IMG/VR virus record: IMGVR_UViG_3300045988_182914
Span: 28,339-92,338 of that record
Reading direction: 5' to 3' (one strand)
DNA length: 64,000 nucleotides
DNA from: a virus
The notes under the pieces were generated by a model. The model ran no database searches. It had not been told where the DNA came from and saw only the letters and a program-made list of their open reading frames with translations. How positions within the stretch are numbered: position 1 is the stretch's first letter; the number at the start of each line of letters is the position of its first letter. Below are positions 30,006-53,517 of this stretch, piece by piece. Made by a program: the position numbers and the translations under genes.

Positions 30006-30043
30006 ATAATTATGGTTTATATAGAGTATGATTTTTTTATTAA

Positions 30044-33970: not shown

Positions 33971-34673
33971 CTTGTTCCTCCTGTTTATATAATTTTTATA
34001 ATTTTAATATCATCATAACATTTTCTTTTGTACAATCCCCAAAAAAAGGACATAGCTCATTCCTACTTGATATAAGCTTGCATTATACGGAATCAACTTT
34101 ATTATGCAGAAAGAGGCATATTCAAGTCAGACAAGTCCGCTTATGAACACTGTCTGCAAGCAGAATGCTAACAAAAAGAATAGAGTTGAAAGAGGTCTTT
34201 ATATTGATGGTAGTTACAATTGGAATGCTGACAGTGTTGGCGCATTTAACATACTGCGCTTATACTTTCAGGCACAAAAAATAGATACCAGACTTGATCC
34301 GATATCTATTTCATCACCTGAAGTAACAAAAGTAGCTGCGTAAAAAAACAGTATTGGTGTTATGGACGCACCTTGGATCCATAGACTTTTAAGTCTGTGC
34401 CCAGATGCTCGGTAATTCAATTACTGAGTAGTTCACAGTCAATACTTCAAACACTATACCTTATTAAAGTCCGGTGAAGGTAAAAAAAAGACTCCCCGAG
34501 AAATTTCAGGAAGCCTTTACATTACTGTATTGGTTACGATTTTTGCCGTTTTGCAACTTATTTAATTTTTTCAGGGGGCGTTGCCGATTCGTATCACAGA
34601 TTTAAGGAAGCACTGCATATATCATACTCCTTTTGATCACGTCCGAACGGCATCATTTTCGTCCACCATATTC

Positions 34674-35057
34674 TCATGCCATAAGTATCCTAATCTGAAG
34701 CATAGGCCTCTTCTCAGCCGTAAATCTCTCATTAACTGCAACCGTCTGATACAGCCTATTTCGGTACGCAATCGTGCGCTTACATACAGCATAATCTTCC
34801 CATTCTGCATCCATTCCCATTATCTTTCTCGCAGACTCTCTTACAAAGTCATCACTGTCCATTGATTTGAAAACATCCTTCGTGCGTCTTTCGTCTCTAT
34901 TTCCGGATGCAGTTTTAAAGCGGATTTTTCCTGCATAAATCATTATGCATCCTGTATTCTTCTCGCCGGAAACCTCATCAAGAAGCTTAAAAAGCGCGAT
35001 CTTTCCTTTCTCAAATATATCGTCTAATCTCATATCCTCTGTTCTTTCATTGCTCAT
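34674..35057 (-). CDS. Hypothetical protein
   Basis: 127 aa ORF. Confidence 0.4.
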   Translation of the reverse strand: MSNERTEDMRLDDIFEKGKIALFKLLDEVSGEKNTGCIMIYAGKIRFKTASGNRDERRTKDVFKSMDSDDFVRESARKIMGMDAEWEDYAVCKRTIAYRNRLYQTVAVNERFTAEKRPMLQIRILMA

Positions 35058-35129
35058 ATATAATGTCTCCTTTCTCGTGTGTCCTATTCCTGCTCATCTG
35101 CAAACATTGCAAGGCATCCTTCTCTTCTC

Positions 35130-35723
35130 CTAAAAGACGTCCATGCTCTCAAAATCTATTCTCAAGTCAACTATTTTCTGACAGTACGGCTCGCATCCTC
35201 GAAGTCCTGATGCACTCCTATGCGTATCCTTGTCTACATCTGTGCATCTTCTGCATAAATCTGCTTCCGCCAGCTCCTGTCTCGCAAGTTCTGCTGCAAT
35301 CGCTGTCGCTTTTGTATATACCTGCATGATGATTGCCGCAAGTGCCGGAGAATACGTTACAAGTCGGTTCCAGTTGAGCTGCCGCCCGAAGTTTTGCCAT
35401 AATCCGCTGTCTTCATAAAAAGCCAGGCGCCTCGACGCCCACTCTAACGCTCTCTTTTCATCCTGCGTTATGAACCGCGCGGCATTTTCAAGCATGGAAC
35501 AAAGCTTCTTGACAGCCGTATTTTCCGCCGCAATCGCGACCACATCTCTCAGACTGTCCCTGTCGGGCTCATCATCTGCTTTAAAATTTAATTTTTCTTT
35601 TGCGTATCCGATGGAATCAATAACACAGTTTCTGTCCACATCTGTCAGATGCATGTTTTGACACTGCATTTCTTTTATCAGATCCGGACTGATTACAGCC
35701 CACGCATACTCGCTTTCGTATAT
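35130..35723 (-). CDS. Hypothetical protein
   Basis: Start MIYESEY just downstream of conserved motif at 35735..35765. Confidence 0.5.
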   Translation of the reverse strand: MYESEYAWAVISPDLIKEMQCQNMHLTDVDRNCVIDSIGYAKEKLNFKADDEPDRDSLRDVVAIAAENTAVKKLCSMLENAARFITQDEKRALEWASRRLAFYEDSGLWQNFGRQLNWNRLVTYSPALAAIIMQVYTKATAIAAELARQELAEADLCRRCTDVDKDTHRSASGLRGCEPYCQKIVDLRIDFESMDVF

Positions 35724-35970
35724 CATGTTGCTTCCTCCTGTATAAAGTATGTCAGAATGCATTTTAAGCTATATCTTTCCATATAAATAAGCTGGTTTTC
35801 CTGTATTAACTTTTTCTTTCCACATCCCACACCCTGCCTGCGTATATAATAAACATCGTCAGCCAGCCTATGGCATATCCCCAGTCAATATCTCTTATTA
35901 ATCCTATTACTTCCTTCAAATTGTGTATCTTATGCCCTGATGGCGCTCTTCTCCTTATTTTTGTATCTTC

Positions 35971-36345
35971 TTATTTTATAATCTTGAACCTTTCTTTCCT
36001 GATCCGGTCGTTTTCCTCTTTGACCTGTCTTAAATGCTTCGACATGACTTCCTTATGTCTTTTGCCATGAGCGCAGTTGTTGCACAGTCCGTAGTTGACA
36101 TGCCCCTTGCCGCCATACGATGCAAAATACTCCCTTTCGTCTATCGCGCCGCATTCGCTACATTTTACGAATCTGTTGCCCTCAATGCTTACAACAGGCT
36201 TTTCTCCGGCCGATTCGATTATTTCATCAAGATGGCTTATAAGGTAGTAGAATGCTCCGAGCTGTTCTGCCGACCCACCCTTTGTCATCTCATGGTATTT
36301 TTCGAGTGTGTTTTTCTCGTTTTCCAAAAAACCACGTCCTTTCAT
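35971..36345 (-). CDS. Hypothetical zinc-ribbon protein
   Basis: 124 aa with CSECG...CNNCAHG. Confidence 0.5.
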   Translation of the reverse strand: MKGRGFLENEKNTLEKYHEMTKGGSAEQLGAFYYLISHLDEIIESAGEKPVVSIEGNRFVKCSECGAIDEREYFASYGGKGHVNYGLCNNCAHGKRHKEVMSKHLRQVKEENDRIRKERFKIIK

Positions 36346-36348
36346 ATA

Positions 36349-36564
36349 TTAATGCGCATTCTCAAGCTTATCCCGTATCAGGGCAAAAACTCTCTGTCTT
36401 GCGCATTCCCTGCCGACACCGTTTTCTGCCATGTCCTTTTCGATAAGCTTTCCGACTGCCCTGGCAATGTCTTTAAGCTCGCCTATATTCTTGGCTCCTG
36501 TCGCTTCTTTGTATACCTTTATTGTCTCTATCCTTGGATCCTTTGAATTTTCTGTCTCCTTCAT
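36349..36564 (-). CDS. Hypothetical small protein
   Basis: 71 aa. Motif at 36595..36640 upstream. Confidence 0.4.
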   Translation of the reverse strand: MKETENSKDPRIETIKVYKEATGAKNIGELKDIARAVGKLIEKDMAENGVGRECARQRVFALIRDKLENAH

Positions 36565-36656
36565 TTTGCTTTCTGTGCCTCCTTATCCTATTCTTTCTCC
36601 CTATATTAAGTATGTCAGATGGATGTTTTGCGAATGTCCTTCCATATAAGTTTCTG

Positions 36657-36902
36657 CTAGATCTGCGTATTTTTCAGATACGCAAGTATCATAATCACCG
36701 CCCTGTATTTTCTCGGATGGCTCATGATATCCTCAATTTCTGCTTCAAGGCCTGCCACGTCAGTTTCCATGCTGCTCTTGCTGAAAGCAAATCCGTCAAG
36801 CCCCGGCTTATTCTGTCTTTTGTACTCTTCTGCCGTCAGACTTCTTAACGCATCCGCCACATCTTTTGCACCTTTTCTTCTTAATATATTTCTGCTGTCC
36901 AT
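36657..36902 (-). CDS. Hypothetical small protein
   Basis: 81 aa. Confidence 0.4.
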   Translation of the reverse strand: MDSRNILRRKGAKDVADALRSLTAEEYKRQNKPGLDGFAFSKSSMETDVAGLEAEIEDIMSHPRKYRAVIMILAYLKNTQI

Positions 36903-36911
36903 AATTCCCTC

Positions 36912-37157
36912 CTAACTGACATGCACAGTCCATCTGTCGGTATACAGATATGATTCCTGCACACAGATATGCACCTTCTCTGCCTGCCTGTATTCCTCAA
37001 CACACGTCCTTGACCTTGTCCAGCCATCCTGAAGCACGCAGATGTCAGCCTCGCTCATATCTTCCACTATTACGGCATTCTCATCCATCTCGAAGATGCC
37101 TCTTATTATATTCCTGTTAATCTTCCGCCTTTTCGGCCTGATTATATAATAGTGCAT
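36912..37157 (-). CDS. Hypothetical small protein
   Basis: 81 aa. Confidence 0.4.
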   Translation of the reverse strand: MHYYIIRPKRRKINRNIIRGIFEMDENAVIVEDMSEADICVLQDGWTRSRTCVEEYRQAEKVHICVQESYLYTDRWTVHVS

Positions 37158-37417
37158 TATTTTTCCTCCCTCGGCATATATCTGCCATTCTCCAGCATTT
37201 CAATGCTTATCTGCCCAGGAATATCCTCTTCCTGCTTCAAAAATCCGCTGTATTCAAGGCTTCTCTCAAGGAAGCTCTGGTAAGTCTCATACAAACTGCA
37301 GCTGTCACACAAGCTGCCGGACGCCGCCTTCCTGTCGAATATCTGCACACATCGCAGGTCTTTTCTTCCCGAAACGGCATTTAGTATGGTGCATGTTTTT
37401 CTTTCCTCATACTTCAA
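37157..37417 (-). CDS. Hypothetical small protein
   Basis: 86 aa. Motif at 37440..37480 upstream. Confidence 0.4.
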   Translation of the reverse strand: MKYEERKTCTILNAVSGRKDLRCVQIFDRKAASGSLCDSCSLYETYQSFLERSLEYSGFLKQEEDIPGQISIEMLENGRYMPREEK

Positions 37418-38049
37418 TTTTTAAGCCTCCAAGCATTTTTCTTCCTTATATGGAAAGTATGATATTTTTTATCAGTGCTAATGGCTTTCCATATAAGAAC
37501 AGCTGCTTTTAGCCAGAAATCTGCAATGAAAATAAAAGTAATGTCAACAGAAAAAGTCCTGTGCCCATACAAGTACACAGAACTCTCAAACCCTTGATTT
37601 TACTGCATTTTTAGCGCAGGAAATATTACCGGAGTTTTATTTTGCTGAAAAATTTCTACAAAATTTCTGCAGTTTTTTTGTTTCTCTATCATATTCATAA
37701 CAATAGAAAATAAAAAAAATATCGTTTTTCAAATTCTACCAGCAGGATAATGACAAGATACAGAAATTGTGCTATAGTATGTATATCAAAGGAAAACAGT
37801 TATCTGCAAAAACGCAGGAGAAAGGAAAAAGATATGCTTACAGCAATTAAGTTTTGTAAAAGTTCATACAGTTGTAAACATAGTTCTTACTTTAAAAAGA
37901 ACTCTATTTTGATGCGCTTTTATATGAACGAAAATTCTGTCTGAAAAACATATTTACTGCATAAATATTTTTCTTTCATGTCGTTTATCTTAGGGCGCAT
38001 CCCGGATGAACGATTTTTTTATTGCTTAAAATGAAAGGAAATAATTATT

Positions 38050-38274
38050 ATGCCAGTAATAAACATGGAACAGACAGGAAAGCAGATTGCAGAATTAAGA
38101 AAGAACGCAAATCTCACTGTAAACGATATAAAGGAAGCACTCGCACTTACAACTGTAAATGCCGTATACAAGTGGCAGCGTGGACAAACGCTTCCAACGC
38201 TTGACAATCTTGTTGCGCTTGCAGCACTCTTCGGCTGCACAATAAATGATATTGTCATAACTGAGACAATATAA
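38050..38274 (+). CDS. XRE-family helix-turn-helix transcriptional regulator
   Basis: 74 aa. QIAELRKNANLTVNDIKEALALTTVNAVYKWQRGQTLP is the classic Cro/CI-type HTH. Confidence 0.75.
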   Translation: MPVINMEQTGKQIAELRKNANLTVNDIKEALALTTVNAVYKWQRGQTLPTLDNLVALAALFGCTINDIVITETI

Positions 38275-38283
38275 GAAACACAT

Positions 38284-38356
38284 GTATCATTAGCTCAGCT
38301 GGCAGAGCACTCGACTTTTAATCGAGCTGTCCGGGGTTCAAGTCCCCGATGGTACA
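38284..38356 (+). tRNA. tRNA-Lys (anticodon TTT)
   Basis: Manual cloverleaf fold. Acceptor GTATCAT/ATGGTAC, anticodon loop CTTTTAA, T-arm CGGGG-TTCAAGT-CCCCG. Confidence 0.8.
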
Positions 38357-38377
38357 TTACCGGCGGGTATAACATGA

Positions 38378-38458
38378 GGATAGGTATGCAAGTGGTTAAA
38401 TCGGGCAGACTGTAAATCTGTTGCTTCGGCTTCGTTGGTTCGAATCCAACCCTATCCA
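38378..38458 (+). tRNA. tRNA-Tyr (anticodon GTA), long variable arm
   Basis: Acceptor GGATAGG/CCTATCC, anticodon loop CTGTAAA, T-arm GTTGG-TTCGAAT-CCAAC. Confidence 0.8.
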
Positions 38459-38559
38459 CTAAGAAATTTCTTTTATTCAAGTCCTGCCCCGCCGACTTAA
38501 TTTTAAAACAAAGGAGATGATTTATAAATGATTGCAGACTTTAAAACTAATTTCATCAG

Positions 38560-38631
38560 GCTCTCGTAGCTCAGAGGTAGAGTACTTGGTTGAAGCCCAA
38601 GGGGTCGAAAGCTCAAAACTTTCCGGGAGCA
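38560..38631 (+). tRNA. Atypical tRNA-like gene, possibly tRNA-Phe (GAA), with non-canonical T-loop CTCAAAA
   Basis: Acceptor GCTCTCG/CGGGAGC (one G-U), anticodon loop TTGAAGC. The T-loop lacks the TTC motif, so it could be a pseudo-tRNA. Confidence 0.4.
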
Positions 38632-38635
38632 TTAT

Positions 38636-38719
38636 GGAGTGTTGGCTCAATTGGTACAGCAACTGTCTTGAAAACAGTCATTCCGAAAGGATATCTGAGT
38701 TCGAATCTCAGGCACTCCG
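38636..38719 (+). tRNA. tRNA-Ser (anticodon TGA), class II
   Basis: Anticodon arm ACTGT-CTTGAAA-ACAGT, long variable arm, T-arm CTGAG-TTCGAAT-CTCAG. Confidence 0.8.
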
Positions 38720-38748
38720 CTATATTAAAAAAACAATTTATATATTAT

Positions 38749-38834
38749 GCAGTGTTGGCAGAGTAGGTAATGCGCCGGATTGCTAATCCGAGGTCATCTT
38801 AACGGATGCAGGGGTTCGAGTCCCTTACGCTGCG
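38749..38834 (+). tRNA. tRNA-Ser (anticodon GCT), class II
   Basis: Anticodon loop TTGCTAA, long variable arm, T-loop TTCGAGT, acceptor GCAGTGT/ACGCTGC. Confidence 0.7.
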
Positions 38835-38898
38835 CTGTGTTAGTAGCTTAGGAGGTTTAATATCGTCAAATCCCGTCTAGCACCTTATATCTTATAAT

Positions 38899-38970
38899 GA
38901 TGATGTAGCCAAGAGGAAAAGGCATTAGTCTGCAAAACTAATATCGTGGGTTCAAATCCCATCATCATCT
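38899..38970 (+). tRNA. tRNA-Cys (anticodon GCA)
   Basis: Acceptor GATGATG/CATCATC, anticodon arm TTAGT-CTGCAAA-ACTAA, T-arm GTGGG-TTCAAAT-CCCAT. Confidence 0.75.
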
Positions 38971-39004
38971 CTCGAATATAATTCTCTTATTTACCACACT
39001 ATAT

Positions 39005-39036
39005 AAAAAATGTACGAATATATTTCGCACATTTTT
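39005..39036. promoter_or_regulatory. 32 bp imperfect palindrome AAAAATGTACGAATAT|ATTTCGCACATTTTT (candidate operator or origin site)
   Basis: Read directly. Shares the TGTACGA core with the second palindrome. Confidence 0.5.
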
Positions 39037-39051
39037 ATAAATTTAGAGCTA

Positions 39052-39079
39052 AATCGTACATTTTTAAATATGTACGATT
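39052..39079. promoter_or_regulatory. Perfect inverted repeat AATCGTACAT-N8-ATGTACGATT
   Basis: 10 bp perfect arms, read directly. Confidence 0.55.
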
Positions 39080-39379
39080 AGCCTTACAGCCCCGTATTTT
39101 GCGCGTATTCTCTGTTTTTATAAAAATCATATTTTTTAGTTATCCCCCACTGTAACCAAAAAACAAAAAAACTCTTTTTCGTACATTTTCATCTTATATG
39201 GAAAGCCAGAGGTGGTGTCCGAAGGCTGAAAAGCGGACGTCTGGTTCCGTTTAAAGCATGTGTAAAGCACCGTAAGTGTATGACTAAGAGCACAATTAAG
39301 CCTGCAGAAATACTGCAGCTGTATGGCTAGAAAAACTGCAGCAAAAAAGAGACCGCAATTCGAAGTCTCTTTTTTTTGC

Positions 39380-39832
39380 TCATTCTTCCAACTTGGCATT
39401 ATCAGCAAATGCTCTTGCCTCCTGCTCAGACGCAAATTCCTTAATATACCCGCCATATCTGAAATACTTCTTAGCATTTCTCTGCCTTTCAGTGATATGG
39501 TCAGTTACTTTAACATCAGCACCCACAATCTTTGGATAACTCTTCGTTCCGCCCCATTCAGCTGAAACCAGTACATACCACTTATCCTCTTTTGGCTTTT
39601 CCTTTTTGATTATGGGGAAATCCTTTGGATTCAGTTCTTTAAAGTCGGCCGGATCGTAAAAGTCCGTCTCGCCGTAGAACTTTCCGGTATGATGCCATTC
39701 AGCTTTCATGACGGCTCCGGCTTCAACTGCTCTTTTCTGCCATGCCTTAAGCTTCGACTTTGGAAGCAGTCCGTCTTCATAGGCAGCAACGGCATTGTTG
39801 CTCATACATTTCTCTCTGTTATATCCGCTCAT
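39380..39832 (-). CDS. Hypothetical protein
   Basis: 150 aa. Conserved motif at 39840..39890 upstream. Confidence 0.5.
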   Translation of the reverse strand: MSGYNREKCMSNNAVAAYEDGLLPKSKLKAWQKRAVEAGAVMKAEWHHTGKFYGETDFYDPADFKELNPKDFPIIKKEKPKEDKWYVLVSAEWGGTKSYPKIVGADVKVTDHITERQRNAKKYFRYGGYIKEFASEQEARAFADNAKLEE

Positions 39833-39983
39833 TTCTTATCCTCCATTTTTCTTTTTTTTGTAAAAAGAGTATGTAAGATTTTATATAGGCGGATGAGCTT
39901 CCATATAAAATGGCAGTATGCACAAAAAAGAACGCCTGAAAAACTTTTGTTTCTCAAGCGTCCTAAAATTTTGTCAAACAATA

Positions 39984-40733
39984 TTATATTTCGCAAATGC
40001 CGGGCTCGTACTTTGCAACCGGATTCAGCTTAAATTCATTGGCCAGATGTTTCTGCTTAATCACCTCGTCAATTTCTTTATCTTCGCAGGTCTCATTGCG
40101 AATAAAGGTATCCAGCTGCTCATACGTAAATCCAAAATTGTCTTCATCTGTCTTTCCACATAAACCGTCTGACGGTGTTTTGTCAACATACTTAGACGGC
40201 AGGCCAAGACAATGTCCAATGGCACAGACTTCAGACTTTGTCAAATATCCTAAAGGAGCCACATCCCCATCACCATCGCCGCCTATCGTAAAATAGCCGA
40301 CATAATCTTCAGAATAATTACATGTGTTAATCATTCTGCCATTATTACACTGACAGACTGCTCTTATCATCTTTGTACGTTCTCTTGGCGCAATATTCTG
40401 CCTGCACTGCTTCGTAATCTCGATTCCACAGTCCTGCAGCTGCTTGAAACTGGCCTCAAGTGCTGATCTTATGTTAATAGTATAGTTTCTGATACCCAAG
40501 AGCCTGCATACTTCAATAGAATCATTAATGTCTGACTGTTCTCCATCCGGCAGCATTACGCCGATGACCCTGTCTGCTCCGAGGGCCTTTACGCACAATG
40601 CCGCTGCTATTGTACTGTCCTTGCCGCCTGAAATGCCCAGTACGGCATTACAGCCTTTCCCATTTTCATCAAACCAGTCCTTAATCCATTTGATAAGATT
40701 TTCTGTCTGCTGTGCTGCATTGAAATTATACAT
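39984..40733 (-). CDS. nadE: NH3-dependent NAD+ synthetase NadE
   Basis: 249 aa. PP-loop GISGGKDS. Overall similarity to the NadE family. Confidence 0.88.
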   Translation of the reverse strand: MYNFNAAQQTENLIKWIKDWFDENGKGCNAVLGISGGKDSTIAAALCVKALGADRVIGVMLPDGEQSDINDSIEVCRLLGIRNYTINIRSALEASFKQLQDCGIEITKQCRQNIAPRERTKMIRAVCQCNNGRMINTCNYSEDYVGYFTIGGDGDGDVAPLGYLTKSEVCAIGHCLGLPSKYVDKTPSDGLCGKTDEDNFGFTYEQLDTFIRNETCEDKEIDEVIKQKHLANEFKLNPVAKYEPGICEI

Positions 40734-40734
40734 A

Positions 40735-41952
40735 CTATTTTTCCTCCTTAATCCTCCAGTCTATACATCTCTGAAGATAATCCACGTAATCCGGGTTTTT
40801 GCACATGCCTTTGCCTGGTGTGTCAGAAATCTTGGCTACGTCCATTCCGTTGCATCTTGTAGTTTTCATGACAATGTTGAGTGCAGGAACATCTGTATCA
40901 TTGCTTAAGTATGTGCCGATACCAAAAGCTACATTTGTTTCCTTGCAGAAATGTCTGTAGAGCTTGTCAGCACGCTCAAAGTCAAGACTGTCGCTGAATA
41001 AAAGTGTCTTTGTTTTAGGGTCAATTCCAAGGCTCCTGTAATGAGCAATCATCTTTTCACCCCACTCATACGGGTCTCCGCTGTCATGACGCACTCCTGA
41101 GAAAAGTGTCGCATAGGTAAGCTGGAAATCACGCAGGAAACAGTCTGTTGTGATTGTGTCAGTAAGCGCAATACCGTTTAATACTCCATACTCCTTAATC
41201 CATGCATCAAGAGCATACCAGTTTGAATATGCCGGATTGTGTTTGTGATTGCCCTGTCCTGTACACATAATCCACTCATGAGCCATAGTGCCTACAGGTG
41301 TAAGCCCATACTTCTTTGCAAGATACACATTTGATGTGCCGACAAACTTTGATGAACTGTGCAGGGTGTCGTTTAAATGTGCGAACTTCTGCACTGCAAG
41401 TTCCTGTGCTTCAGCAGAAAGTCTTCTTCTGAGACCAAACTCTGAGAATGTACCTGCGTACCAGTGTCCGTTCTTTAAATTCTCATACTTCGCATCCAGA
41501 CGCTTCTTAAAGCTGTCAAGCAGCTTATCATAGTCATATGTCATTCTGAAATACACTTCATTTACAATGGCAAGTGTCGGAATCTCATACATTGATGTGT
41601 TAAGCCATGTTCCTTTTGCCTCGATAGACAAGCCGCAAGGTGCATCTGTTCCTATCTCAAAATCCTCAAAACGTGGCTGCCAGAGACGAAGAAAATCAAC
41701 GTAAGAGCCTTTAATCCACTTGATATTGTCTAAATATGCAAGTTCATCTTCCGCAAACCGAAGCTTGCAGAATGCCTTAATCTGTTCTGTTATCTCCTGT
41801 ACCATTTCCGGTGTAAAATGCACATCCGTATTTCTGCACTTGAATGTCCATGTGGTCTTGTAATCCGTAAACTGATGGAATATTGTCTGACCCATCGAAA
41901 ATTTATACATGTCTGTCTCTAAAAGACTTGTGATTATCTGGTTTAATTTCAT
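40735..41952 (-). CDS. pncB: Nicotinate phosphoribosyltransferase PncB (E. coli-type, about 400 aa)
   Basis: 405 aa. SLLETDMYKFSMGQ, FVGTSNVYLAKKYGLTPVGTMAHEW, GVRHDSGDPYEWGEKMIAHYRSLGIDPKTKTLLFSDSLD and ISDTPGKGMC align closely with E. coli PncB. Confidence 0.92.
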   Translation of the reverse strand: MKLNQIITSLLETDMYKFSMGQTIFHQFTDYKTTWTFKCRNTDVHFTPEMVQEITEQIKAFCKLRFAEDELAYLDNIKWIKGSYVDFLRLWQPRFEDFEIGTDAPCGLSIEAKGTWLNTSMYEIPTLAIVNEVYFRMTYDYDKLLDSFKKRLDAKYENLKNGHWYAGTFSEFGLRRRLSAEAQELAVQKFAHLNDTLHSSSKFVGTSNVYLAKKYGLTPVGTMAHEWIMCTGQGNHKHNPAYSNWYALDAWIKEYGVLNGIALTDTITTDCFLRDFQLTYATLFSGVRHDSGDPYEWGEKMIAHYRSLGIDPKTKTLLFSDSLDFERADKLYRHFCKETNVAFGIGTYLSNDTDVPALNIVMKTTRCNGMDVAKISDTPGKGMCKNPDYVDYLQRCIDWRIKEEK

Positions 41953-42013
41953 GTATTCTCCTCCTTATTCTTACGTTATCAGTATGTCAGAAACCTTTTT
42001 GATAAATGGCTTT

Positions 42014-42556
42014 CTATATAATATTTACCTGAATCATCTTCATTGCTTCTATTGCTGTCTTATGACTTTCAGGCGTTACGCAGGCACAGGCATTTTCTAT
42101 CACGAACACCTCTGCATCTTTACAGAACGTCTTTGCAATCGCTACGTTGCTGATTACACATATTCCTGTGCAGAATCCGCAGAAATAAATCTCTGTATCG
42201 CTGTTGTCATATCCCGCAAGCAGTTCGCCAAGCTCTTTGCTGCCAAACGTCGGCTTGTCAATATAAGTAATATCGTCACAATTAACTCCACGCTCCTTCA
42301 TTGCATCTTTAAGACGAGCGTCTACTTCCCATCCGTTTGTCCCTTTAATACAGTGCACTACCGGAAGTTTCTTTCCTTCCTGAGTATTCAGATAGTTTTC
42401 ATCATGCGTATCCCTTGTGAATATCACGTCATCATATTTTCCTGACCTGATTTCATCTGCAATAACATTTGTCGCCACGTTACACTCCTTGTTTCCAAGA
42501 ACTCCTGTAATAAAATCATTCTGCGCATCCACTACTACTAAAATTTTCTTTGCCAT
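42014..42556 (-). CDS. pncA: Isochorismatase-family hydrolase, most likely nicotinamidase PncA
   Basis: 180 aa. VVVDAQNDF (Asp), conserved Lys in YIDKPTFG, Cys in FCGFCTGICV. Assignment as nicotinamidase is supported by operon context. Confidence 0.75.
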   Translation of the reverse strand: MAKKILVVVDAQNDFITGVLGNKECNVATNVIADEIRSGKYDDVIFTRDTHDENYLNTQEGKKLPVVHCIKGTNGWEVDARLKDAMKERGVNCDDITYIDKPTFGSKELGELLAGYDNSDTEIYFCGFCTGICVISNVAIAKTFCKDAEVFVIENACACVTPESHKTAIEAMKMIQVNII

Positions 42557-42568
42557 AATTATTTCCTC

Positions 42569-44023
42569 CTACATCATATAATCATCATTTGTTGCAGCCA
42601 TAAGGATTTTTCTAAGCTGCTTTAAATCTTTCCACATCCATCGTGGAACCAGATCCCTGACTTTGTCATAATCTTTCTTACACAGCAAATCTCTGATCAT
42701 TGTACTCGAAATTTCAATATCGCTTCTGCCAAGATTTCTGATGGTCACATTCTTTAAAATATCATCTGTAAACCAGTTTTCCGCAATCTTCGGATCGTCG
42801 TTGTAATAAAATGTAAAGCTTTTCTCTCCAATTTCATTAGCTATGTTGTAATAGAAGAAAGAACCCCATTCTTTTACATACTGGGCTGCATCCTCCATGC
42901 TCCAGTCTGATAAAGTCATAACCTTTACATCTGCACCGCTTAAATCCTCTTCCTGCAGTACGTTTTCAACAAGTCTTTTTCTGTATTCGATTGGAAACGG
43001 ATTTCTCTTTGTATAGCTTTTGTTTGCACTGCCTATCACAACAAGCAGATTTTCGCACTCCGATGCGGCCTGTTTTATCATGTTCAGGTGTCCGTTATGG
43101 AATGGCTGTGCCCTTGTGAGTATCACACCGTTTTTATATTTCTTCTGCACTTTAACCAGTTTACGTTCATCCATGTTAAGGTCAACATATCTGTACACAG
43201 CAGCCGGTTTTCTTCCGACAATAGGCCTCTGCGACCTGTCAAGTGAAACAAGCTGTCCTGCAATCTTCTCACGGAACACCTTTGGATGAACTTCCTTTCC
43301 TGAAAGAACCTCAAACACCTTAAGCAGATCCGGAATGGTAAACTCACGCGGCACAAGGTTAAACATAATGCCTGTATACTCAGCCTTATTCCTTATCCTC
43401 ATAAGTCCTTCCAGCATAATCTGGTCATGGTCAAAAGCAAGCTTTTCGTCTGATACACTGACCGGAATAAAATTTTCCACTGTAATTACACCGTTTTTAA
43501 ATTTCTCAGACTTGAGGGAGTATTCAATTTTAATCAAGTCGTTTGCGAACTCAAGTTTTTTATCTGCAAATTTCACATCGAACCATCTGGCATCCTTTGC
43601 GTCATCTCCTGCAACAGCAGCCTGCTCATATCCATATGGAAGCAGTGCAATGTATGCAATATCAATAATTCTCATACGAGGGTCCCTGTCCGGCTGGCTC
43701 ATGGTATAGAGCTGCTCAAGATAAATGTCTGTAAGACCTGTTTCCTCTTTAAGCTCCCTGCACGCTGCTTCATATGCGGATTCCTTTATATTAATAAATC
43801 CGCCCGGAAGCGCCCACTTGTCTATCTCCGGATGAGCCTTTCTCTTTATCAAAAGCACCTGCATACAGCTTAAGTCTTCCTTCATACGAAGCACCATCAT
43901 GTCAACTGTAACCGATGGCCTGTCATAATCACCCGGTTTATATTCTGCTAAAAATTCCTGTTCTGTTAATCCATTTACATCTACTTTATTCATGTGTTTA
44001 ACTCCTATAATTACTTTCTGCAT
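42569..44023 (-). CDS. Three-domain fusion: N-terminal Nudix hydrolase (ADP-ribose pyrophosphatase-like), central NrtR-like winged-helix segment, C-terminal NadM-type NMN/NaMN adenylyltransferase
   Basis: Nudix box GGFINIKESAYEAACRELKEETG. Central PREFTIPDLLKVFEVLSGKEV...FREKI resembles the NrtR wHTH. C-terminal LTRAQPFHNGH and LVVIGSANK are the (H/T)xGH nucleotidyltransferase signatures. Confidence 0.85.
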   Translation of the reverse strand: MQKVIIGVKHMNKVDVNGLTEQEFLAEYKPGDYDRPSVTVDMMVLRMKEDLSCMQVLLIKRKAHPEIDKWALPGGFINIKESAYEAACRELKEETGLTDIYLEQLYTMSQPDRDPRMRIIDIAYIALLPYGYEQAAVAGDDAKDARWFDVKFADKKLEFANDLIKIEYSLKSEKFKNGVITVENFIPVSVSDEKLAFDHDQIMLEGLMRIRNKAEYTGIMFNLVPREFTIPDLLKVFEVLSGKEVHPKVFREKIAGQLVSLDRSQRPIVGRKPAAVYRYVDLNMDERKLVKVQKKYKNGVILTRAQPFHNGHLNMIKQAASECENLLVVIGSANKSYTKRNPFPIEYRKRLVENVLQEEDLSGADVKVMTLSDWSMEDAAQYVKEWGSFFYYNIANEIGEKSFTFYYNDDPKIAENWFTDDILKNVTIRNLGRSDIEISSTMIRDLLCKKDYDKVRDLVPRWMWKDLKQLRKILMAATNDDYMM

Positions 44024-44047
44024 TTTTTATATTTACTTTATGTACTT

Positions 44048-44076
44048 ATTATAGTAGCTCTTAGTAACTATGTCAA
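44048..44076 (-). promoter_or_regulatory. Consensus sigma70 promoter TTGACA-17-TATAAT driving the NAD salvage operon
   Basis: Minus-strand ttgacatagttactaagagctactataat. Flanked by AAGTACTT/AAGTAC inverted elements that could be an operator. Confidence 0.7.
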
Positions 44077-44147
44077 GTACTTTATAGAATTAATTGTATT
44101 TTTTCGAATTTAGTGTGCTTCCACAGTCTATCCGTGGGAGACGCCAA

Positions 44148-44186
44148 TATATGAACTCAAAAAAAAGAGGTACATTTCTGTACCTC
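44148..44186 (-). terminator. Rho-independent terminator downstream of the flotillin gene
   Basis: Hairpin agaggtaca-tttc-tgtacctct with a T-run on the minus strand. Confidence 0.7.
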
Positions 44187-44197
44187 TTCTGCCTTTT

Positions 44198-45706
44198 CTA
44201 CATGTTCTCGTAGTCGAAGCATTCATCTTTTGAATCAGATGGAATCTTATTCTTATGCATTTCTGCTGTGGTTTCTTTTACCGCATTTTCAGTGATTTTC
44301 TCGCCAAAATCTGTTGCTACGTTAATATTGTTGTTAACTTTGGCGTCATATGTATTAGCTTTCATGACCTCGGTAAGGTCAAATCCGGTTGTCTCTTTTA
44401 CAGACTCGATGGTTTTAGCAAGCACCTGCGGAACATTGTCGCTTATAGCAGACATTCCACTGTCTCCTGCACCACCGATAATAGAAACCTTATCAATGCT
44501 CTCAAGTGGCTTAGCAATAGCCTCTGCCATCTGTGGAAGAACCTTGATAATCATCTCGGTCATTGCTGCCTTGCCGTATTTAGCCATAGCATCAGCTTTC
44601 TTTTCCATAGCCTCTGCCTCTGCAAGACCTTTTGCTCTGATACCTTCTGCTTCTGCCTCATACTGTGCCCTTGTTGCCTCGGCAGCCTGAAGCTTTGTAA
44701 ACTTCTCTGCTTCTGCTCTCTTTTCCTGCTCATACTTCTCAGCATCAGCTTTCTGCATACGGGCGTATTTCTCAGCATCCGCCTGTTTCTTTACTTCAGC
44801 ATCGAGTGACTTCTCGCGGACTGCAATCTCTTTCTCCTTGATTTCAGCCTCTTTTTCCTGCTTGGCAATGTTTGCGTCAGCAGTTGCGATCTCAATGGTT
44901 TTCCTCTGCTCCTGTTCCTGAATCTCATAAGCTGCATCAGCTTCAGCCTTTTTGATGTCTGACTGTTTCTTAAGCTCCTGCTTCTTGATTTCCAGTGCAT
45001 TGTTCTGCTCCGCAATAGCTGTCTCAGCTTCTACTCTTGCATCATTGGCCTGCTTGTCTGCGGCTGCCTTTGCAACAGCAATATCTCTTAAGCTTTCAGC
45101 CTTTGAAATCTGTGCTGATTTAGAAATACTTACAATTCTATCAATACCTAAATTCTCAATGACATCGGCCTTATCAGTAACATTCTGTACATTAAAGGAC
45201 ACAATATCTAAGCCCATCTTAGCCATATCCGGAGCTGCATTCTCCTGAACCTTATCAGCAAACTTCTTACGGTCCTGTACAATTTCCTCAAGCTTCATCT
45301 GACCAATAATTTCTCGGACATTACCCTGCAATACATCCACAACAGAAGTCCTGATGTAATCTTCATTCTTGTTAAGGAAGTTGCTTGCGGCAAGCTTCAT
45401 CTTCTCTGGATCCATGCTAACCTTGACTTTTACAGCCGAATCAATATTGACATTAATATAATCATTGGTTGGAACTGACTCCTCAGTTTTTACATCCACT
45501 GAAATCATCTTCAAAGTAAGTCTGTCAGTTCTCTGTAAGAACGGAATCTTGATCGATGACCGCCCGATTACATACTTTGGCTCCTTCTTAAGTCCACTGA
45601 TGATTACTGCCGTATCTGTTGGTGCCTTGACATATCCTGTAATAAGGATAAGAACAATGACTACCACAATGGCTGCTGCTACAAATATTAAGTTGTCCAT
45701 GTGCAT
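44198..45706 (-). CDS. Flotillin-like SPFH/band-7 protein (FloT/YuaG-like)
   Basis: 502 aa. N-terminal TM, SPFH domain, long Ala/Glu/Lys-rich coiled-coil repeats (EAEIKEKEIAVREK...). Confidence 0.85.
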   Translation of the reverse strand: MHMDNLIFVAAAIVVVIVLILITGYVKAPTDTAVIISGLKKEPKYVIGRSSIKIPFLQRTDRLTLKMISVDVKTEESVPTNDYINVNIDSAVKVKVSMDPEKMKLAASNFLNKNEDYIRTSVVDVLQGNVREIIGQMKLEEIVQDRKKFADKVQENAAPDMAKMGLDIVSFNVQNVTDKADVIENLGIDRIVSISKSAQISKAESLRDIAVAKAAADKQANDARVEAETAIAEQNNALEIKKQELKKQSDIKKAEADAAYEIQEQEQRKTIEIATADANIAKQEKEAEIKEKEIAVREKSLDAEVKKQADAEKYARMQKADAEKYEQEKRAEAEKFTKLQAAEATRAQYEAEAEGIRAKGLAEAEAMEKKADAMAKYGKAAMTEMIIKVLPQMAEAIAKPLESIDKVSIIGGAGDSGMSAISDNVPQVLAKTIESVKETTGFDLTEVMKANTYDAKVNNNINVATDFGEKITENAVKETTAEMHKNKIPSDSKDECFDYENM

Positions 45707-45777
45707 TTTTCTCCTTTTTTATAATGGATTTTTTTATATAATATTCCTTATTTGAACTTTGTCCAAAAAAGGAAATA

Positions 45778-46077
45778 TTAATCTGTTATCATAATAATGT
45801 CAGTGTATTCATAATCACTGATGTCGGCATATCCATACTTAAGCAGCTCTTCAACAATATCATTGCAGTTGAATCTGCTTATACCGACAAACATCAAACC
45901 TGCATTATGCGGCATGTCCTGCTGCGATACCAATAATCCGCATCTGTAAGTGTTTCCAAATTCATCCACCTCATCGTCAGGCTTATTATCAAACACCTTA
46001 ACCTTATGCTTGCAGTAATGTACATTTGTTACGGCAATGACCACGTCGGTACTACCCTGTTTAAATTTTAGTCGCAC
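45778..46077 (-). CDS. Hypothetical protein
   Basis: 99 aa ORF. Confidence 0.4.
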   Translation of the reverse strand: MRLKFKQGSTDVVIAVTNVHYCKHKVKVFDNKPDDEVDEFGNTYRCGLLVSQQDMPHNAGLMFVGISRFNCNDIVEELLKYGYADISDYEYTDIIMITD

Positions 46078-46100
46078 GCTTTTTTCTCCTCTCTAAATTT

Positions 46101-46397
46101 TCATCCAAATATCTTCTCAAATCTGCCTTTTGTGTAGTTGTATTTTTCGATGATTTTTTCTTCATACTTTACAACATACGTTTCAAGTTTCATTTTTAAA
46201 GCCGTATCTATCATGTTTTTGGTGCCTCTGCTGTCAGCTCTTAAAAATGCTATCAGCACACCGTTACAGCCCTTCTTCATGGCATATCTTGCCATTTCAC
46301 CGTTCCTTCTTGGTCCGGCCATTTTTCCGTAACGGCTCCAGTCAGCTGGAAATCTAGCAACAGCCATTCCTTCTTCTCTTGCATATTCCTCGCCCAT
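46101..46397 (-). CDS. DUF2493 / SLOG-family protein. The ORF continues upstream to about 46545 with no in-frame ATG (alternative start, 5' truncation or intervening element)
   Basis: ISGTCRGTDKMGEEYAREEGMAVARFPADWSRYGKMAGPRRNGEM matches the DUF2493 core. Upstream in-frame translation RIPVSGTTIISG continues the family N-terminal region. Confidence 0.6.
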   Translation of the reverse strand: MGEEYAREEGMAVARFPADWSRYGKMAGPRRNGEMARYAMKKGCNGVLIAFLRADSRGTKNMIDTALKMKLETYVVKYEEKIIEKYNYTKGRFEKIFG

Positions 46398-46551
46398 CTT
46401 ATCAGTTCCACGGCAGGTGCCGCTGATTATGGTTGTACCGCTTACTGGAATTCGCGCAGTCTTGAATATCCACCTGCAAACCTTATTTAATCTGGTCTGG
46501 TCTGGTCCGTGAATTCTCTGCTTCCTGCTATTATTACTCTGTTTTCAGGCA

Positions 46552-46805
46552 TCATATGACATCAGCTTCCTTTCTAAGACACACGCACGCCCCGGGTGGA
46601 GCATGCGCACGCTGCTGAAATTCTTTCGGATATGTCGGCATCCCGCTGTCGAGACCGGATACCGTCCAGGGAACTACTTCAGCTAAACCCGCGTGCATCC
46701 GGAAGGATTCGAACCTTAGCTGCCTGCCAAAACCAGACATCCGAATGCGATGATAAGCGGCGAACCGCCTGGCAGACATGACTGCATGCACACGGCATTG
46801 AAGAC
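46552..46805 (-). other. GC-rich (about 57%) structured non-coding element containing a tRNA-like minihelix (acceptor stem plus T-arm GGTTCGAATCC, lacking D and anticodon arms)
   Basis: Minus-strand GCATTCGG-23nt-TAAGG-TTCGAAT-CCTT-CCGGATGC. Further nested hairpins (GGCGGTTCGCCGC, CATCGCATTCGGATG). Lies between conserved motif 46820..46850 and the DUF2493 ORF. Confidence 0.45.
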
Positions 46806-46900
46806 ATACAGCTTCATGTCTGTCATTATAAGTATGATAGATTTTATACCCGTTTATAGGTTTCTATATAAATTTTCCATATTTTTCAGCTCGCAGTGCA

Positions 46901-46975
46901 ACGCACATATAATACTATAAGGTCTGAATTTTTGGTGCACCCTTGTTATCCTCTTTTGGACACAAAAAAAAGAAC
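46901..46975. repeat. About 70 bp direct repeat, copy A (copy B at 48205..48274), bracketing the Rpn transposase gene
   Basis: acgcacatataatactataaggtctgaatttttggtgcaccctt.ttat.ctcttttgg.cacaaaaaa at about 93% identity. Confidence 0.8.
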
Positions 46976-47016
46976 TTCGGCAAAACACCGAAGCCCTTTT
47001 ATAAAACAACTTCTTA

Positions 47017-48030
47017 TTATTTTATTCCTATTGCAAGCAAGATAGTATGCTCATCATATCCCTGCCTTGCCAGTTCCTCTTTTGTTACACCATTTCTCAA
47101 TTTTTGGACGGCTTCGGCCAGAAGATTCTGCCCTTCAACTCTGCCTTTAAGTATGCCCTGACTAATGCCTTTAGCCATATTTTTCTCCGCAATGTTTTGA
47201 GAATAAGCTGTCATCTGCCTTACCTCCTCTTCTATTGTTTTTGTTATCTTCACGCCGTGCCCAGCAAGCGAATCGAGTTTTTCCTGTTTCGACATCTCGT
47301 CGTTAACAAGATCCGTCAGAAAGCCTATCAGTTCCCCACTGGACTGCGTATAAGTATGATTTTTACTCAGTCTTATTATCTTCAGATACATTATATCATA
47401 CCGGTCTTCGATTGTCGAGCTGCTTACAACCATTCCATTTTTTTCAACTTCTTTTTGAAGGCTTATGGTTTCGATTGTTCCTGCACGTTTTTCAGGTGTC
47501 TCGGGGCATATCCAAATGGAATACACTTTTTTCAAACCGCCGTACTTGACAGGGTCGTCTTTTGAAAGAGTAAATTCTTTTCCACACTGTCTTGAAATCT
47601 CCCTGCACATGTAGAATATGCCTCTTTCTGATATATCATACCCCGGACGTTCCGCTTTCTGCCCTTCGATATTAATGTAAAGCTTAACGAAATCCGTTTT
47701 GCTGTCTGACAACTTGACAGGAGCCATAATCCACGACAGAATATCAAATTTGACAAGCTCTTCGCCTGCGACATAATCCTCCTGCGCAAGTTCTCCCGAC
47801 AGGACAGCATTCTCAAGCCCGGGCTCCACAGGTATGCGCATGAATTCCACATCGCCAAGAAGCGCTGTAATCTGTTCGTATGACAGATTTTTGCATTCAT
47901 CCACGCAGCCTTTGACGATTCGTGCCATGAACTGTTCATTCGACAGAAGCTTCTTAATACAGTTGTCTAACAGTATGTCTTCAGGTTCAAGCGCGACAAT
48001 GGTTTTTGCTGCTGATGTTAACTCTTCCAT
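47017..48030 (-). CDS. Rpn/YhgA-like PD-(D/E)xK family transposase (Transposase_31)
   Basis: 337 aa. C-terminal MTAYSQNIAEKNMAKGISQGILKGRVEGQ helix-repeat tail typical of the Rpn family. Confidence 0.75.
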   Translation of the reverse strand: MEELTSAAKTIVALEPEDILLDNCIKKLLSNEQFMARIVKGCVDECKNLSYEQITALLGDVEFMRIPVEPGLENAVLSGELAQEDYVAGEELVKFDILSWIMAPVKLSDSKTDFVKLYINIEGQKAERPGYDISERGIFYMCREISRQCGKEFTLSKDDPVKYGGLKKVYSIWICPETPEKRAGTIETISLQKEVEKNGMVVSSSTIEDRYDIMYLKIIRLSKNHTYTQSSGELIGFLTDLVNDEMSKQEKLDSLAGHGVKITKTIEEEVRQMTAYSQNIAEKNMAKGISQGILKGRVEGQNLLAEAVQKLRNGVTKEELARQGYDEHTILLAIGIK

Positions 48031-48204
48031 TTTTTGGTTTCTCCTTTCCTTTGTACTTTGTCTGTAAGTTACAAAAAGCCCGCAGGAAAGATACTTCCCG
48101 CAGACTGTGCGGGATAGTTCCCGTTAATAAGAAATTATGTTATTGCCTCCTTCTGTCATTTCTTATATGGAAAGTATGTAAGAAAATTTTCAGCCCACCG
48201 TGCT

Positions 48205-48274
48205 ACGCACATATAATACTATAAGGTCTGAATTTTTGGTGCACCCTTATTATTCTCTTTTGGGCACAAAAAAG
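48205..48274. repeat. About 70 bp direct repeat, copy B
   Basis: See copy A. Confidence 0.8.
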
Positions 48275-48355
48275 AGGCGCATCAGATGCATCTCTTCATT
48301 ACTGACATAATAAAAAGCCCCAGACATTATCCGAGACTTTGTTTTAAAAAAGAGT

Positions 48356-48652
48356 TTACCACGATTTTGCCATTTCTATGACGCGATTGAAATCGCGCTC
48401 AAATGCACGGCTATAAAAGTCCTTGATATTCTGCGGCGCATCTTCCGAGCAGCTCAGACCTATTGTTTTAGTTCTATAGTGTTCTCTCAACGTTTCTTTG
48501 TTGTAAATACAAATGATTCCCTGACATCCTCCAATGATTCTTGCTGATACAATCCAGTTGCCGACATCTTCCCTTTTTACCGAGTCTTCATCGGTAAAAA
48601 GATATTCCGTCTGCAACACCTTTTTATATCCTTCTGCCCATGCATCATACAT
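48356..48652 (-). CDS. Hypothetical protein
   Basis: 98 aa ORF. Confidence 0.45.
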   Translation of the reverse strand: MYDAWAEGYKKVLQTEYLFTDEDSVKREDVGNWIVSARIIGGCQGIICIYNKETLREHYRTKTIGLSCSEDAPQNIKDFYSRAFERDFNRVIEMAKSW

Positions 48653-48666
48653 TGACTATTGCCTCC

Positions 48667-49053
48667 TTACACTTCCTCATACTGATGTCCATATCGCTTC
48701 ATATATCCCTCGTATGAAGAATACAATGTTGCCTTATATATACGAGCAAGGCGTCTGCCTTCCTCTACACATTCATCGAATTCTTTCTTTGAAAAGTGTT
48801 TATAAAGCTGATCTTTGGAAGCTAAAATTTTACAGCCTGAGCCTGATGCAGTACTTGGTACATACTCAAAGCATGGATCGTACCCCATATCTCCGAATTC
48901 ACTGAAGAATACACCAATGACAGACACACCATCTGTGACTAACCCATACACACTTGTAGGGTTTTTCTTATTAATGAATGCTCTAAGCCCCTGTTTCTTA
49001 CAAACCTTAAGGTCTGCCAATAATTTTTCTCTTCTTTCTTCTGTTAAACTCAT
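48667..49053 (-). CDS. Hypothetical protein
   Basis: Start MSLTEERREK after GGGAGGAAAAAAT. Motif at 49065..49110. Confidence 0.5.
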   Translation of the reverse strand: MSLTEERREKLLADLKVCKKQGLRAFINKKNPTSVYGLVTDGVSVIGVFFSEFGDMGYDPCFEYVPSTASGSGCKILASKDQLYKHFSKKEFDECVEEGRRLARIYKATLYSSYEGYMKRYGHQYEEV

Positions 49054-49245
49054 ATTTTTTCCTCCCATTTTCTTTTTTATATAGAAAGTATGTAAGAAAT
49101 TAGAAAACTGAAAATTTTTATAGCTGCATGCACGGTCGCCAGAATTTTAGGTACACTGCTTCATTTGATTTTTTGCGCAGGATTTTTCAAAAACAAAAAA
49201 CATACTAATGATATACAAAAAATTGACTATGAAAGGAATTTTTAT

Positions 49246-50421: not shown

Positions 50422-50467
50422 TTAGCCACACAAAAAAGGAGAACAGAAACTTCTGCTCTCCTCTTTT

Positions 50468-50623: not shown

Positions 50624-50624
50624 A

Positions 50625-52734: not shown

Positions 52735-52901
52735 TTTCCTCCATTTCTCTTTTTCTGATATAAAGAGTATGTTTGAAAGAACAAAAATGGCATCAAAAAA
52801 AGTCCCGGTGAAATCCAGAACCTTTTGTTATTGAGAAAACCAAACATTTCCATATAAAATAAAAAATCATACTTTTTTTAAATAATCGCAAAAAAAAGGA
52901 A

Positions 52902-53495: not shown

Positions 53496-53517
53496 TAAAT
53501 AAAAAGTCAGCCAGACT

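Follow-up and report, generated by a model that had tools for sequence, protein, structure and literature searches.

A probably self-repressed NAD+ salvage operon shared between Agathobacter chromosomes and a large gut mobile element

A 64,000-nucleotide stretch of the IMG/VR virus record IMGVR_UViG_3300045988_182914 (positions 28,339 to 92,338 of that record; hereafter the window) carries four intact consecutive minus-strand genes at 39984-43993: a fusion of the regulator gene nrtR to a nadM-type adenylyltransferase gene, then pncA, pncB and nadE. We find that the segment which starts at the promoter and stops shortly before the end of pncB copies a chromosomal operon of Agathobacter, and we consider it likely that the four genes form a functional, self-contained and self-repressed operon for nicotinamide adenine dinucleotide (NAD+) salvage, essentially the host bacterium's own, copied onto a large mobile element. 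An initial annotation, made from the sequence alone, had seen in these genes a candidate defence against immune systems that deplete NAD+. Our data are compatible with counter-defence but give it no specific support, and we conclude that the operon is not a counter-defence device evolved by the element; it is more economical to read it as a source of additional NAD+ that is controlled much as in the host.

The four genes lie where the initial annotation had placed them, separated by gaps of 12, 61 and 1 nucleotides (nt), and an AGGAG/GGAGG ribosome site precedes each one. The fusion gene (42569-43993, minus strand; PF00293, PF21906 and PF01467) extends as an open reading frame (ORF) over 42569-44023, or 484 amino acids (aa), at full length; its true start, however, is almost certainly the ATG at 43993, giving 474 aa, because an AGGAG lies 8 nt upstream of that codon and all database relatives are 474-476 aa long. 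An exact-protein look-up with the 484-aa form returned no match, the annotated form having 474 aa. Downstream follow pncA (42014-42556, minus strand, 180 aa; isochorismatase fold, PF00857 8e-21), pncB (40735-41952, minus strand, 405 aa; NAPRTase 8.9e-68, TIGR01514 409 bits against a cut-off of 270, and 1YIR 2.5e-93) and nadE (39984-40733, minus strand, 249 aa; PF02540 5.5e-47, TIGR00552 151.5 bits against a cut-off of 63.65, and phrog_11189 4.9e-54). A sigma-70 promoter, TTGACA-17-TATAAT, stands before them on the same strand (44048..44076, 12/12 match). Two intrinsic terminators of that strand flank the whole: one at 44163..44190, a 12-bp stem followed by a T-run, ends the upstream flotillin gene and forms the 5' limit of the DNA that chromosomal copies have in common with the element, while the other, at 39929..39964 with a 16-bp stem and T-run, closes the operon. 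With one promoter and two flanking terminators, the operon is thus a self-contained transcription unit.

Profile and structure searches with the four proteins matched every family that had been suggested for them, namely NAD synthase, NAPRTase, isochorismatase, Nudix with the NrtR winged helix-turn-helix, and the cytidylyltransferase-like fold. Together with motif searches they uphold the assignment of a complete gene set leading from nicotinamide to nicotinate, nicotinate mononucleotide (NaMN) and NAD, and the expected catalytic motifs are present in all four proteins.

The first protein combines a Nudix domain (residues 28-165), a winged helix (about 210-270), a disordered linker (272-282) and an adenylyltransferase of the NadM/archaeal type for nicotinamide mononucleotide (NMN) or NaMN (286-470), with profile matches of 2.7e-17 to PF00293, 4.3e-9 to PF21906 (36.8 bits against a cut-off of 27) and 4.7e-10 to PF01467. 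The joining of a Nudix domain (PF00293) to an adenylyltransferase (PF01467) is thereby confirmed, as is the NrtR-like winged helix between them: the peptide that the initial annotation had singled out falls inside the PF21906 (NrtR_WHD) match. Its Nudix box (GX5EX7REUXEEXGU, residues 65-87) is canonical and intact, and invariant across the fused proteins and eight aligned free-standing relatives; the adenylyltransferase carries the motifs HNGH (299-302) and ISSTMIR (428-434). A profile search of the PDB retrieved the NrtR-family structures 2FML (1.1e-37), 3GZ5 (3e-25), 3GZ6 and 3GZ8, and AraR, as well as the NadM-Nudix enzymes 2QJT and 2QJO and archaeal NMN adenylyltransferases (NMNATs) including 1F9A (1.8e-10). 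In an AlphaFold model (mean predicted local distance difference test score 76.9) the NrtR module, the disordered linker and a separate adenylyltransferase domain are laid out in turn; Foldseek confirmed the Nudix fold of the N-terminal domain and superposed the NrtR module on the Shewanella oneidensis NrtR-DNA complex 3GZ6, with a template modelling score of 0.75 on the target.

Among 1.84 billion representative proteins, one 50%-identity cluster alone has the order NrtR to NMNAT, the other two-domain matches being classical NadM-Nudix proteins; near-identical fusion proteins form a cluster of more than 3000 member sequences in public data. The papers that we consulted make no mention of an NrtR-NMNAT fusion or of an NrtR-controlled operon on a mobile element, and the fusion appears to be lineage-restricted and undescribed so far. 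Its NrtR part shares about 60% identity with Lachnospiraceae NrtRs that stand alone. A putative second, divergent fusion, at locus L038, was rejected: the two matches, to NrtR and to NMNAT, do not share one reading frame, and the locus was treated as unfused. A 6.8 kb contig (L003, 61-1611 and 4784-6214) has a version of the fusion gene that is 70% identical and stands before pncA, some 3 kb away from genes for a large tyrosine recombinase, a DUF6262 protein and an AAA ATPase; this contig may represent a third, integrative context of the cassette.

Each of the remaining enzymes has the residues expected of it. PncA retains the catalytic triad D10/K101/C133 and the metal site D49/H51/H68, aligns to the solved nicotinamidases 1ILW/1IM5 and 3O90, and occupies an operon position that is conserved across Lachnospiraceae. 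PncB has the phospho-histidine motif GTMAHE at 221-226, with the histidine at residue 225. NadE, with a PP-loop SGGKDS at residues 35-40 and one synthetase domain without CN_hydrolase, is predicted to be an NH3-dependent enzyme of the NAD synthetase family that would amidate either nicotinate adenine dinucleotide (NaAD) or NaMN. Its best solved match, 3FIU, is likewise 249 aa long, and we take this to be the Francisella NMN synthetase that is the partner of NadM. If so, the pathway may run from NaMN through NMN to NAD rather than via NaAD. The partner of a NadM enzyme may be an NMN synthetase or, equally, an NAD synthetase (PMC3376133), and the last two steps may therefore come in either order.

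The nearest relatives of this nadE outside the cassette, 83-87% identical, lie on contigs of about 360 kb, where the operon is unfused and has five genes: nrtR, NMNAT, pncA, pncB and nadE. On two of these contigs (L081 and L083, 1-4600) the five-gene operon directly follows genes for a P-type ATPase, a vWA-TerF-like protein and a Ter-type ATP-grasp protein, which are components of tellurite-resistance-like stress systems. Elsewhere a fusion of a YAcAr domain to an NAD synthase (P0134), 80% identical to the window NadE, hints at a functional link between the YAcAr nucleotide-binding domain and NadE; in relatives of the element (L084-L086, 6006-6457) a 149-aa YAcAr/SLOG ORF stands two genes upstream of the flotillin gene, and at roughly that position the window has a 98-aa ORF without domain match (46101-46397, minus strand).

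The control region also corresponds to that of the host. The textbook promoter noted in the initial annotation is confirmed and unique, its sequence at 44076-44048 being the sole exact match in 64 kb where 0.04 would be expected by chance, and an identical promoter lies upstream of the chromosomal Agathobacter operon (loci L011 and L012). That the promoter is set apart from the rest of the element is thus a real difference, but one explained by its source: this is the probably autoregulated nrtR promoter of the host, which came with the genes. About 45 Lachnospiraceae nrtR promoters share a palindrome of 21 bp (A[AT]AGTAG-N7-CTACT[AT]T), which in many cases lies within the spacer between the -35 and -10 boxes and often occurs in two copies, one filling that spacer and one before the ribosome site. 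The fusion clade, on chromosome and element alike, keeps a variant, TAGTTACT-AAG-AG(C/T)TACTA, at the spacer position. In the window it occurs once, as the candidate NrtR operator TAGTTACT-AAG-AGCTACTA (44052..44070, minus strand), an imperfect palindrome that fills the spacer. The AAGTACTT word adjoining the -35 box, part of the stretch that had been put forward as the target of the fusion protein, was rejected as an operator, not being conserved among relatives; it is the spacer palindrome that is conserved instead.

Genomic context accounts for this resemblance. A scan of species-representative genomes returned 55 loci, in which nrtR-pncA-pncB is the usual layout, at times with nadE or a separate NMNAT, and about 45 Lachnospiraceae genomes have it as their standard chromosomal operon; in [Bacteroides] pectinophilus, nrtR-pncB sits among housekeeping genes. 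The fused form is chromosomal in Agathobacter: a 96-97% identical fusion protein is encoded by the cultured isolate Agathobacter sp. LCP21S3_B2 and by one Agathobacter metagenome-assembled genome. In the chromosomal operon of this genus the order is fusion-pncA-pncB followed by a glutamine-dependent nadE of 628-650 aa (CN_hydrolase plus NAD_synthase), with HflX, ABC transporters, MarR, NrdD and a type I restriction-modification system as neighbours.

Over window positions of about 40778-44165, DNA identity to the chromosomal copies is 94-100%, compared in 300-nt steps over 40900-44165, with long stretches at 100%, and the PncA protein is residue-for-residue identical in chromosomal and element contexts. 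The homology breaks off at about 40778, some 45 nt before the pncB stop, so that the last stretch of pncB (40735-40778) lies outside it. At the other end the breakpoint falls at about 44165-44189, reaching 44189 in the comparison with locus L011 and about 44165, the upstream terminator, with L088 and L089. Only the short nadE is of element type, the host chromosome carrying its glutamine-dependent nadE at that place; the cassette, joining a host-like segment to an element-type nadE, is therefore a chimera. In a neighbour-joining tree of the shared segment, element and chromosomal copies interleave, which implies at least two exchange events between chromosome and element. The 4.4 kb cassette (39879-44292) recurs on a 202 kb contig, where its surroundings are unrelated; the DNA common to this second context (L001, L004) ends at 39879. 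The operon has been kept intact in several element lineages and contexts. The initial annotation had named the presence of the same operon in the host's core genome as an argument against its own reading, and at 94-100% DNA identity this is largely what Agathobacter presents.

These features can be joined in a simple scheme. PncA would deamidate nicotinamide to nicotinate, PncB would make NaMN from it, and the NadM-type domain and NadE would finish the route, either through NaAD to NAD or, in the Francisella manner, through NMN to NAD. The NrtR module would bind the spacer palindrome and so block RNA polymerase until ADP-ribose from NAD+ cleavage released it, whereby expression would rise while NAD+ is being consumed. 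ADP-ribose is known to release NrtR from DNA (PMC2330246); such de-repression, proposed for this operon in the initial annotation, is the established NrtR model, and for the fusion operon we extend it by analogy. Because its Nudix box is intact, the fusion protein may also hydrolyse ADP-ribose, which would reset the switch; in NrtR-family proteins an intact Nudix signature accompanies real ADP-ribose pyrophosphatase activity (PMC2330246). The benefit to the cell would be extra salvage capacity under the ADP-ribose logic of the host copy, that is, a general NAD+ supply, of which buffering against NAD+-depleting immunity is a possible part.

In gene set and order, with NrtR first and a candidate palindromic operator over the promoter, the operon resembles both the nrtR-pncA-pncB operons of Lachnospiraceae and the nrtR-pncA-pncB-nadD-nadE layout described in 2008 for Clostridium acetobutylicum (PMC2330246), where ADP-ribose is likewise the expected inducer. 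It departs from the C. acetobutylicum operon in having a NadM-type enzyme rather than NadD, in the fusion of this enzyme to NrtR, in its location on a mobile element and in its short NH3-type nadE. The pncA-pncB1-nadD2-nadE genes of Pseudomonas aeruginosa also form an NrtR-repressed Preiss-Handler route (salvage pathway I). In vivo, an NAD-depleting toxin lifts the NrtR repression of its pncB/nadD2/nadE pathway, which was shown to neutralise the toxin (PMC11535050), but that pathway is chromosomal, belongs to a proteobacterium, and has a separate regulator and a NadD-type enzyme. The NadM-Nudix enzymes of Synechocystis, Francisella and Acinetobacter, and NatV of phage KVP40, share with the fusion protein an archaeal-type NMNAT and an ADP-ribose-type Nudix domain; in the fusion the order is reversed, Nudix first, with the NrtR winged helix in between. 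Enterobacterial NadR (helix-turn-helix, NMNAT and ribosylnicotinamide kinase) is an analogous union of repressor and NMNAT in one polypeptide (PMC2330246), although its DNA-binding domain is unrelated, NAD acts as co-repressor rather than ADP-ribose as inducer, and a kinase takes the place of the Nudix domain.

Mobile genomes that encode NAD+ synthesis are themselves well documented. NAD+ reconstitution in phages is carried out by NARP1 (Adps and Namat), NARP2 (NadV, an Nampt, with NatV) and NARP3, a pair of PnuC and a NadR-like protein (PMC13464706). The window operon shares with NARP1-3 the rebuilding of NAD+ from breakdown products or precursors by a mobile element, yet its route passes through nicotinate and needs an amidation step, with other chemistry and other enzymes: the cassette contains no Adps/Namat, Nampt, PRPS-like, PnuC or NadR-type protein, and its phosphoribosyltransferase is an NAPRTase. 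Of 668 gut jumbo phages, 174 were reported to have a full set of salvage or Preiss-Handler genes (the 'NAD-jumbo phages'; Li et al. 2024, Microbiome, PMC11662467), with pncB-nadD-nadE clusters, pncA mentioned, and NAD-consuming enzymes such as ligases; we also found GenBank huge phages with adjacent pncB and nadE genes. These jumbo phages resemble our element as large gut mobile genomes with complete Preiss-Handler or salvage clusters and NAD-consuming enzymes, but they are called phages and NrtR goes unmentioned in that paper, whereas the window element shows no phage hallmark and has an operon near-identical to that of its host. The observation of PncA-PncB-NMNAT-NadE as a distinct third route is accordingly not a new one, since complete Preiss-Handler clusters in jumbo phages were published in 2024 (PMC11662467) and NARP3 names another pair (PMC13464706).

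What kind of element bears the operon is suggested by its surroundings. The placement of the operon on a mobile element, already proposed in the initial annotation, is supported by flanks that hold small unannotatable ORFs, a VirD4-like gene, RadC, TnpB and Cas12a, and by the second context of the cassette. We regard the element as 200-300 kb in size and extrachromosomal, and it looks more like a conjugative plasmid than a phage: a conjugative plasmid-like nature is the favoured assignment, though by no means a firm one, a jumbo phage is possible but a good deal less likely, and any other kind of element is doubtful. Searches of about 65 window ORFs across the 64 kb with PHROGs and Pfam found no capsid, portal, terminase or tail family. 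The VirD4-like coupling-protein homologue (CD1115 family; 49246-50421, plus strand, 391 aa), encoded on the strand opposite to its neighbours, is 27-32% identical to genes of conjugative Firmicutes plasmids, although it looks short for its family, and 742 of the 1000 plasmid records that it matched are typed as conjugative. A faecal scaffold that shares the last 325 bases of the window encodes a full type IV secretion system set, topoisomerase III, RecD2-like helicases and an actin-like (ParM-like) partition protein. Related contigs, having either a window protein or the operon context, measure 202-312 kb, among them ones of 220-312 kb and 238 kb.

Relatives in curated collections are few. In the phage collection only three unannotated faecal "Bacteriophage sp." scaffolds matched at the DNA level, and no phage record there had most of the fusion protein in one place. 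PLSDB gave no DNA match for window positions 44300-64000 and, at the protein level, only distant NrtR homologues; IMG/VR relatives of the LigA region reach 43% identity only, and the VirD4-like gene has no relatives in IMG/VR. A search of the literature for a named Agathobacter megaplasmid or jumbo phage found nothing useful.

How strongly does this context argue for a weapon against host immunity? As a dedicated counter-defence, the operon would rebuild NAD+ from nicotinamide whenever a Thoeris, SIR2, DSR or SPARTA/SPARSA short-Argonaute system fires, with the ADP-ribose released by the NADase as the inducing signal, and would be in effect a fourth NAD+ reconstitution pathway. The operon does sit on a mobile element and recurs on several large ones, with an ADP-ribose-sensing NrtR module apparently in control, an intact Nudix box and an NAD-dependent ligase on the same element; NARP1-3 prove the principle for phages, as the P. 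aeruginosa pathway does for NrtR-controlled Preiss-Handler synthesis against an NAD-depleting toxin (PMC11535050). Yet the host chromosome already has the same operon, promoter and operator, and the element therefore adds dosage and no new capability. The window shows none of the phage hallmark genes searched for, no NADase or other PADLOC defence family was detected among its 43 smaller ORFs, no SIR2 or TIR domain turned up in general Pfam scans of its ORFs, and four enzymatic steps costing ATP and phosphoribosyl pyrophosphate would be slow beside NARP1 or NARP2. We judge both dedicated counter-defence and its corollary, ADP-ribose as the alarm signal of a fourth reconstitution pathway, to be unlikely. 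Its fullest form must be called doubtful: an ADP-ribose-triggered, self-inducing PncA-PncB-NadM-NadE pathway shielding a large Agathobacter plasmid or jumbo phage from Thoeris, SIR2 or short-Argonaute NADases, in which a single polypeptide would serve as ADP-ribose sensor and as the enzyme of one pathway step, and might break ADP-ribose down as well. The operator and repressor of the element would stay in step with those of the host through recurrent gene conversion with the host copy.

At the opposite extreme the operon might be a neutral passenger, recently picked up by homologous recombination between chromosome and element and persisting by chance without benefit to the element. The high (97.5-100%), patchy and mosaic identity to the chromosomal copies and the sharp breakpoints at about 40778 and 44165-44189 would suit such an origin, but four intact ORFs with strong ribosome sites, the presence of the cassette in at least two element contexts, a near-identical fusion cluster of more than 3000 member sequences, and complete nrtR/NMNAT/pncA/pncB/nadE operons kept on several large elements so divergent that some genes share as little as 42-56% identity, make mere chance improbable. 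Very improbable, in our estimate, is that the window is no mobile element at all but a variable island of the Agathobacter chromosome, with the operon as plain housekeeping. The guanine-cytosine (GC) content is uniform at about 40% across the window, the operon is identical to chromosomal copies, and LigA and the transfer RNAs (tRNAs) could be chromosomal genes; the chromosomal locus, however, has other flanks and another nadE, the window flanks consist mainly of small ORFs without family match alongside VirD4-like, RadC, ProQ/FinO-like, TnpB/IS200 and Cas12a genes, the contigs with a window protein or the operon context are 220-312 kb and 238 kb in length, and a scaffold deposited as phage is colinear with window 25087-40903.

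A host-derived, self-repressed operon for general NAD+ supply thus remains the explanation that we prefer, and several observations weigh against it. On the side of control, the fusion clade has operator half-sites that differ from those of the family consensus. This consensus (AGTAG-N7-CTACT, two mismatches allowed) is not enriched in the window, with 16 occurrences found against 19 expected, and there is accordingly no evidence for NrtR control over other element genes; pattern searches within the window saw no operator at these genes, LigA included. On the side of catalysis, the fusion protein falls below the cut-offs of both curated adenylyltransferase models (NF002243, 64.5 bits against 127; TIGR01527, 50.8 against 181), the preference of this domain for NaMN or NMN cannot be read from its sequence, and PncA scores poorly on the E. 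coli-type equivalog model (20 against 174 bits). As to origin, we infer rather than prove the direction of transfer, from chromosome to element or the reverse; the colinear scaffold just mentioned, deposited as "Bacteriophage sp.", would be in keeping with a phage rather than a plasmid, and so too would the finding that a fragment carrying the cassette, one only and 27 kb long, is in IMG/VR.

Should the preferred explanation hold, the element would be a clear case of a large gut mobile element that duplicates the vitamin B3 salvage operon of its host, regulator and operator included, with chromosomal and element copies exchanging sequence repeatedly. Such sharing would tie the element to a named host genus, Agathobacter, without culturing, and the fusion would offer a natural three-module protein (sensor, DNA binder and enzyme) in which to study NrtR-type regulation fused to catalysis. 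The combination of a lineage-restricted regulator-enzyme fusion with repeated chromosome-element exchange appears to be undescribed so far. It also counsels caution, in that NAD-synthesis genes on mobile elements should not all be read as anti-defence.

The NAD-consuming ligase reported in the initial annotation is indeed present, as an NAD-dependent LigA at 7054-9174 (phrog_3869, 9.6e-162), and the flanks also carry RadC, a ProQ/FinO-like protein, IS200, two TnpB genes and BspA-type leucine-rich repeat proteins. The two TnpB genes (OrfB_IS605 / Cas12f-like TNB; 11418-12557, minus strand, and 16958-18232, plus strand) flank the region upstream of Cas12a; one match to an IS200-type Y1 transposase among the smaller scanned ORFs is probably the 134-aa ORF at 12641-13045 (plus strand). 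The Cas12a (Cpf1) gene itself is complete (19476-23267, plus strand; RuvC_1 8e-89, with NUC, REC1, REC2 and PI). Downstream of it, at 23388-26950, a 36-nt repeat of the Cas12a type (…AATGTCTACTnnnGTAGAT) is present in at least 34 copies, arranged in two long CRISPR arrays. The degeneracy of these repeats is unusual. The two arrays are separated by an ORF of 244 aa (25000-25734), and no cas1, cas2 or cas4 was seen.

Further along, a protein of 1308 aa that combines a vWA domain with bacterial TSP3 repeats (30044-33970, minus strand; Pfam) is absent from the otherwise colinear scaffold MT835946.1 and is therefore a variable insertion. About 1 kb past the downstream end of the operon, the opposite strand carries six clustered tRNA genes (Lys, Tyr, Phe, two Ser and Cys; 38283-38971, plus strand), in an interval that is several kb longer in MT835946.1. 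Beyond the left end of the window, on contig L071 (20362-20510), a Pfam match to the anti-CRISPR AcrIC5 closes a one-strand run of ORFs of 50-100 aa, a run that resembles an anti-defence or early-gene island.

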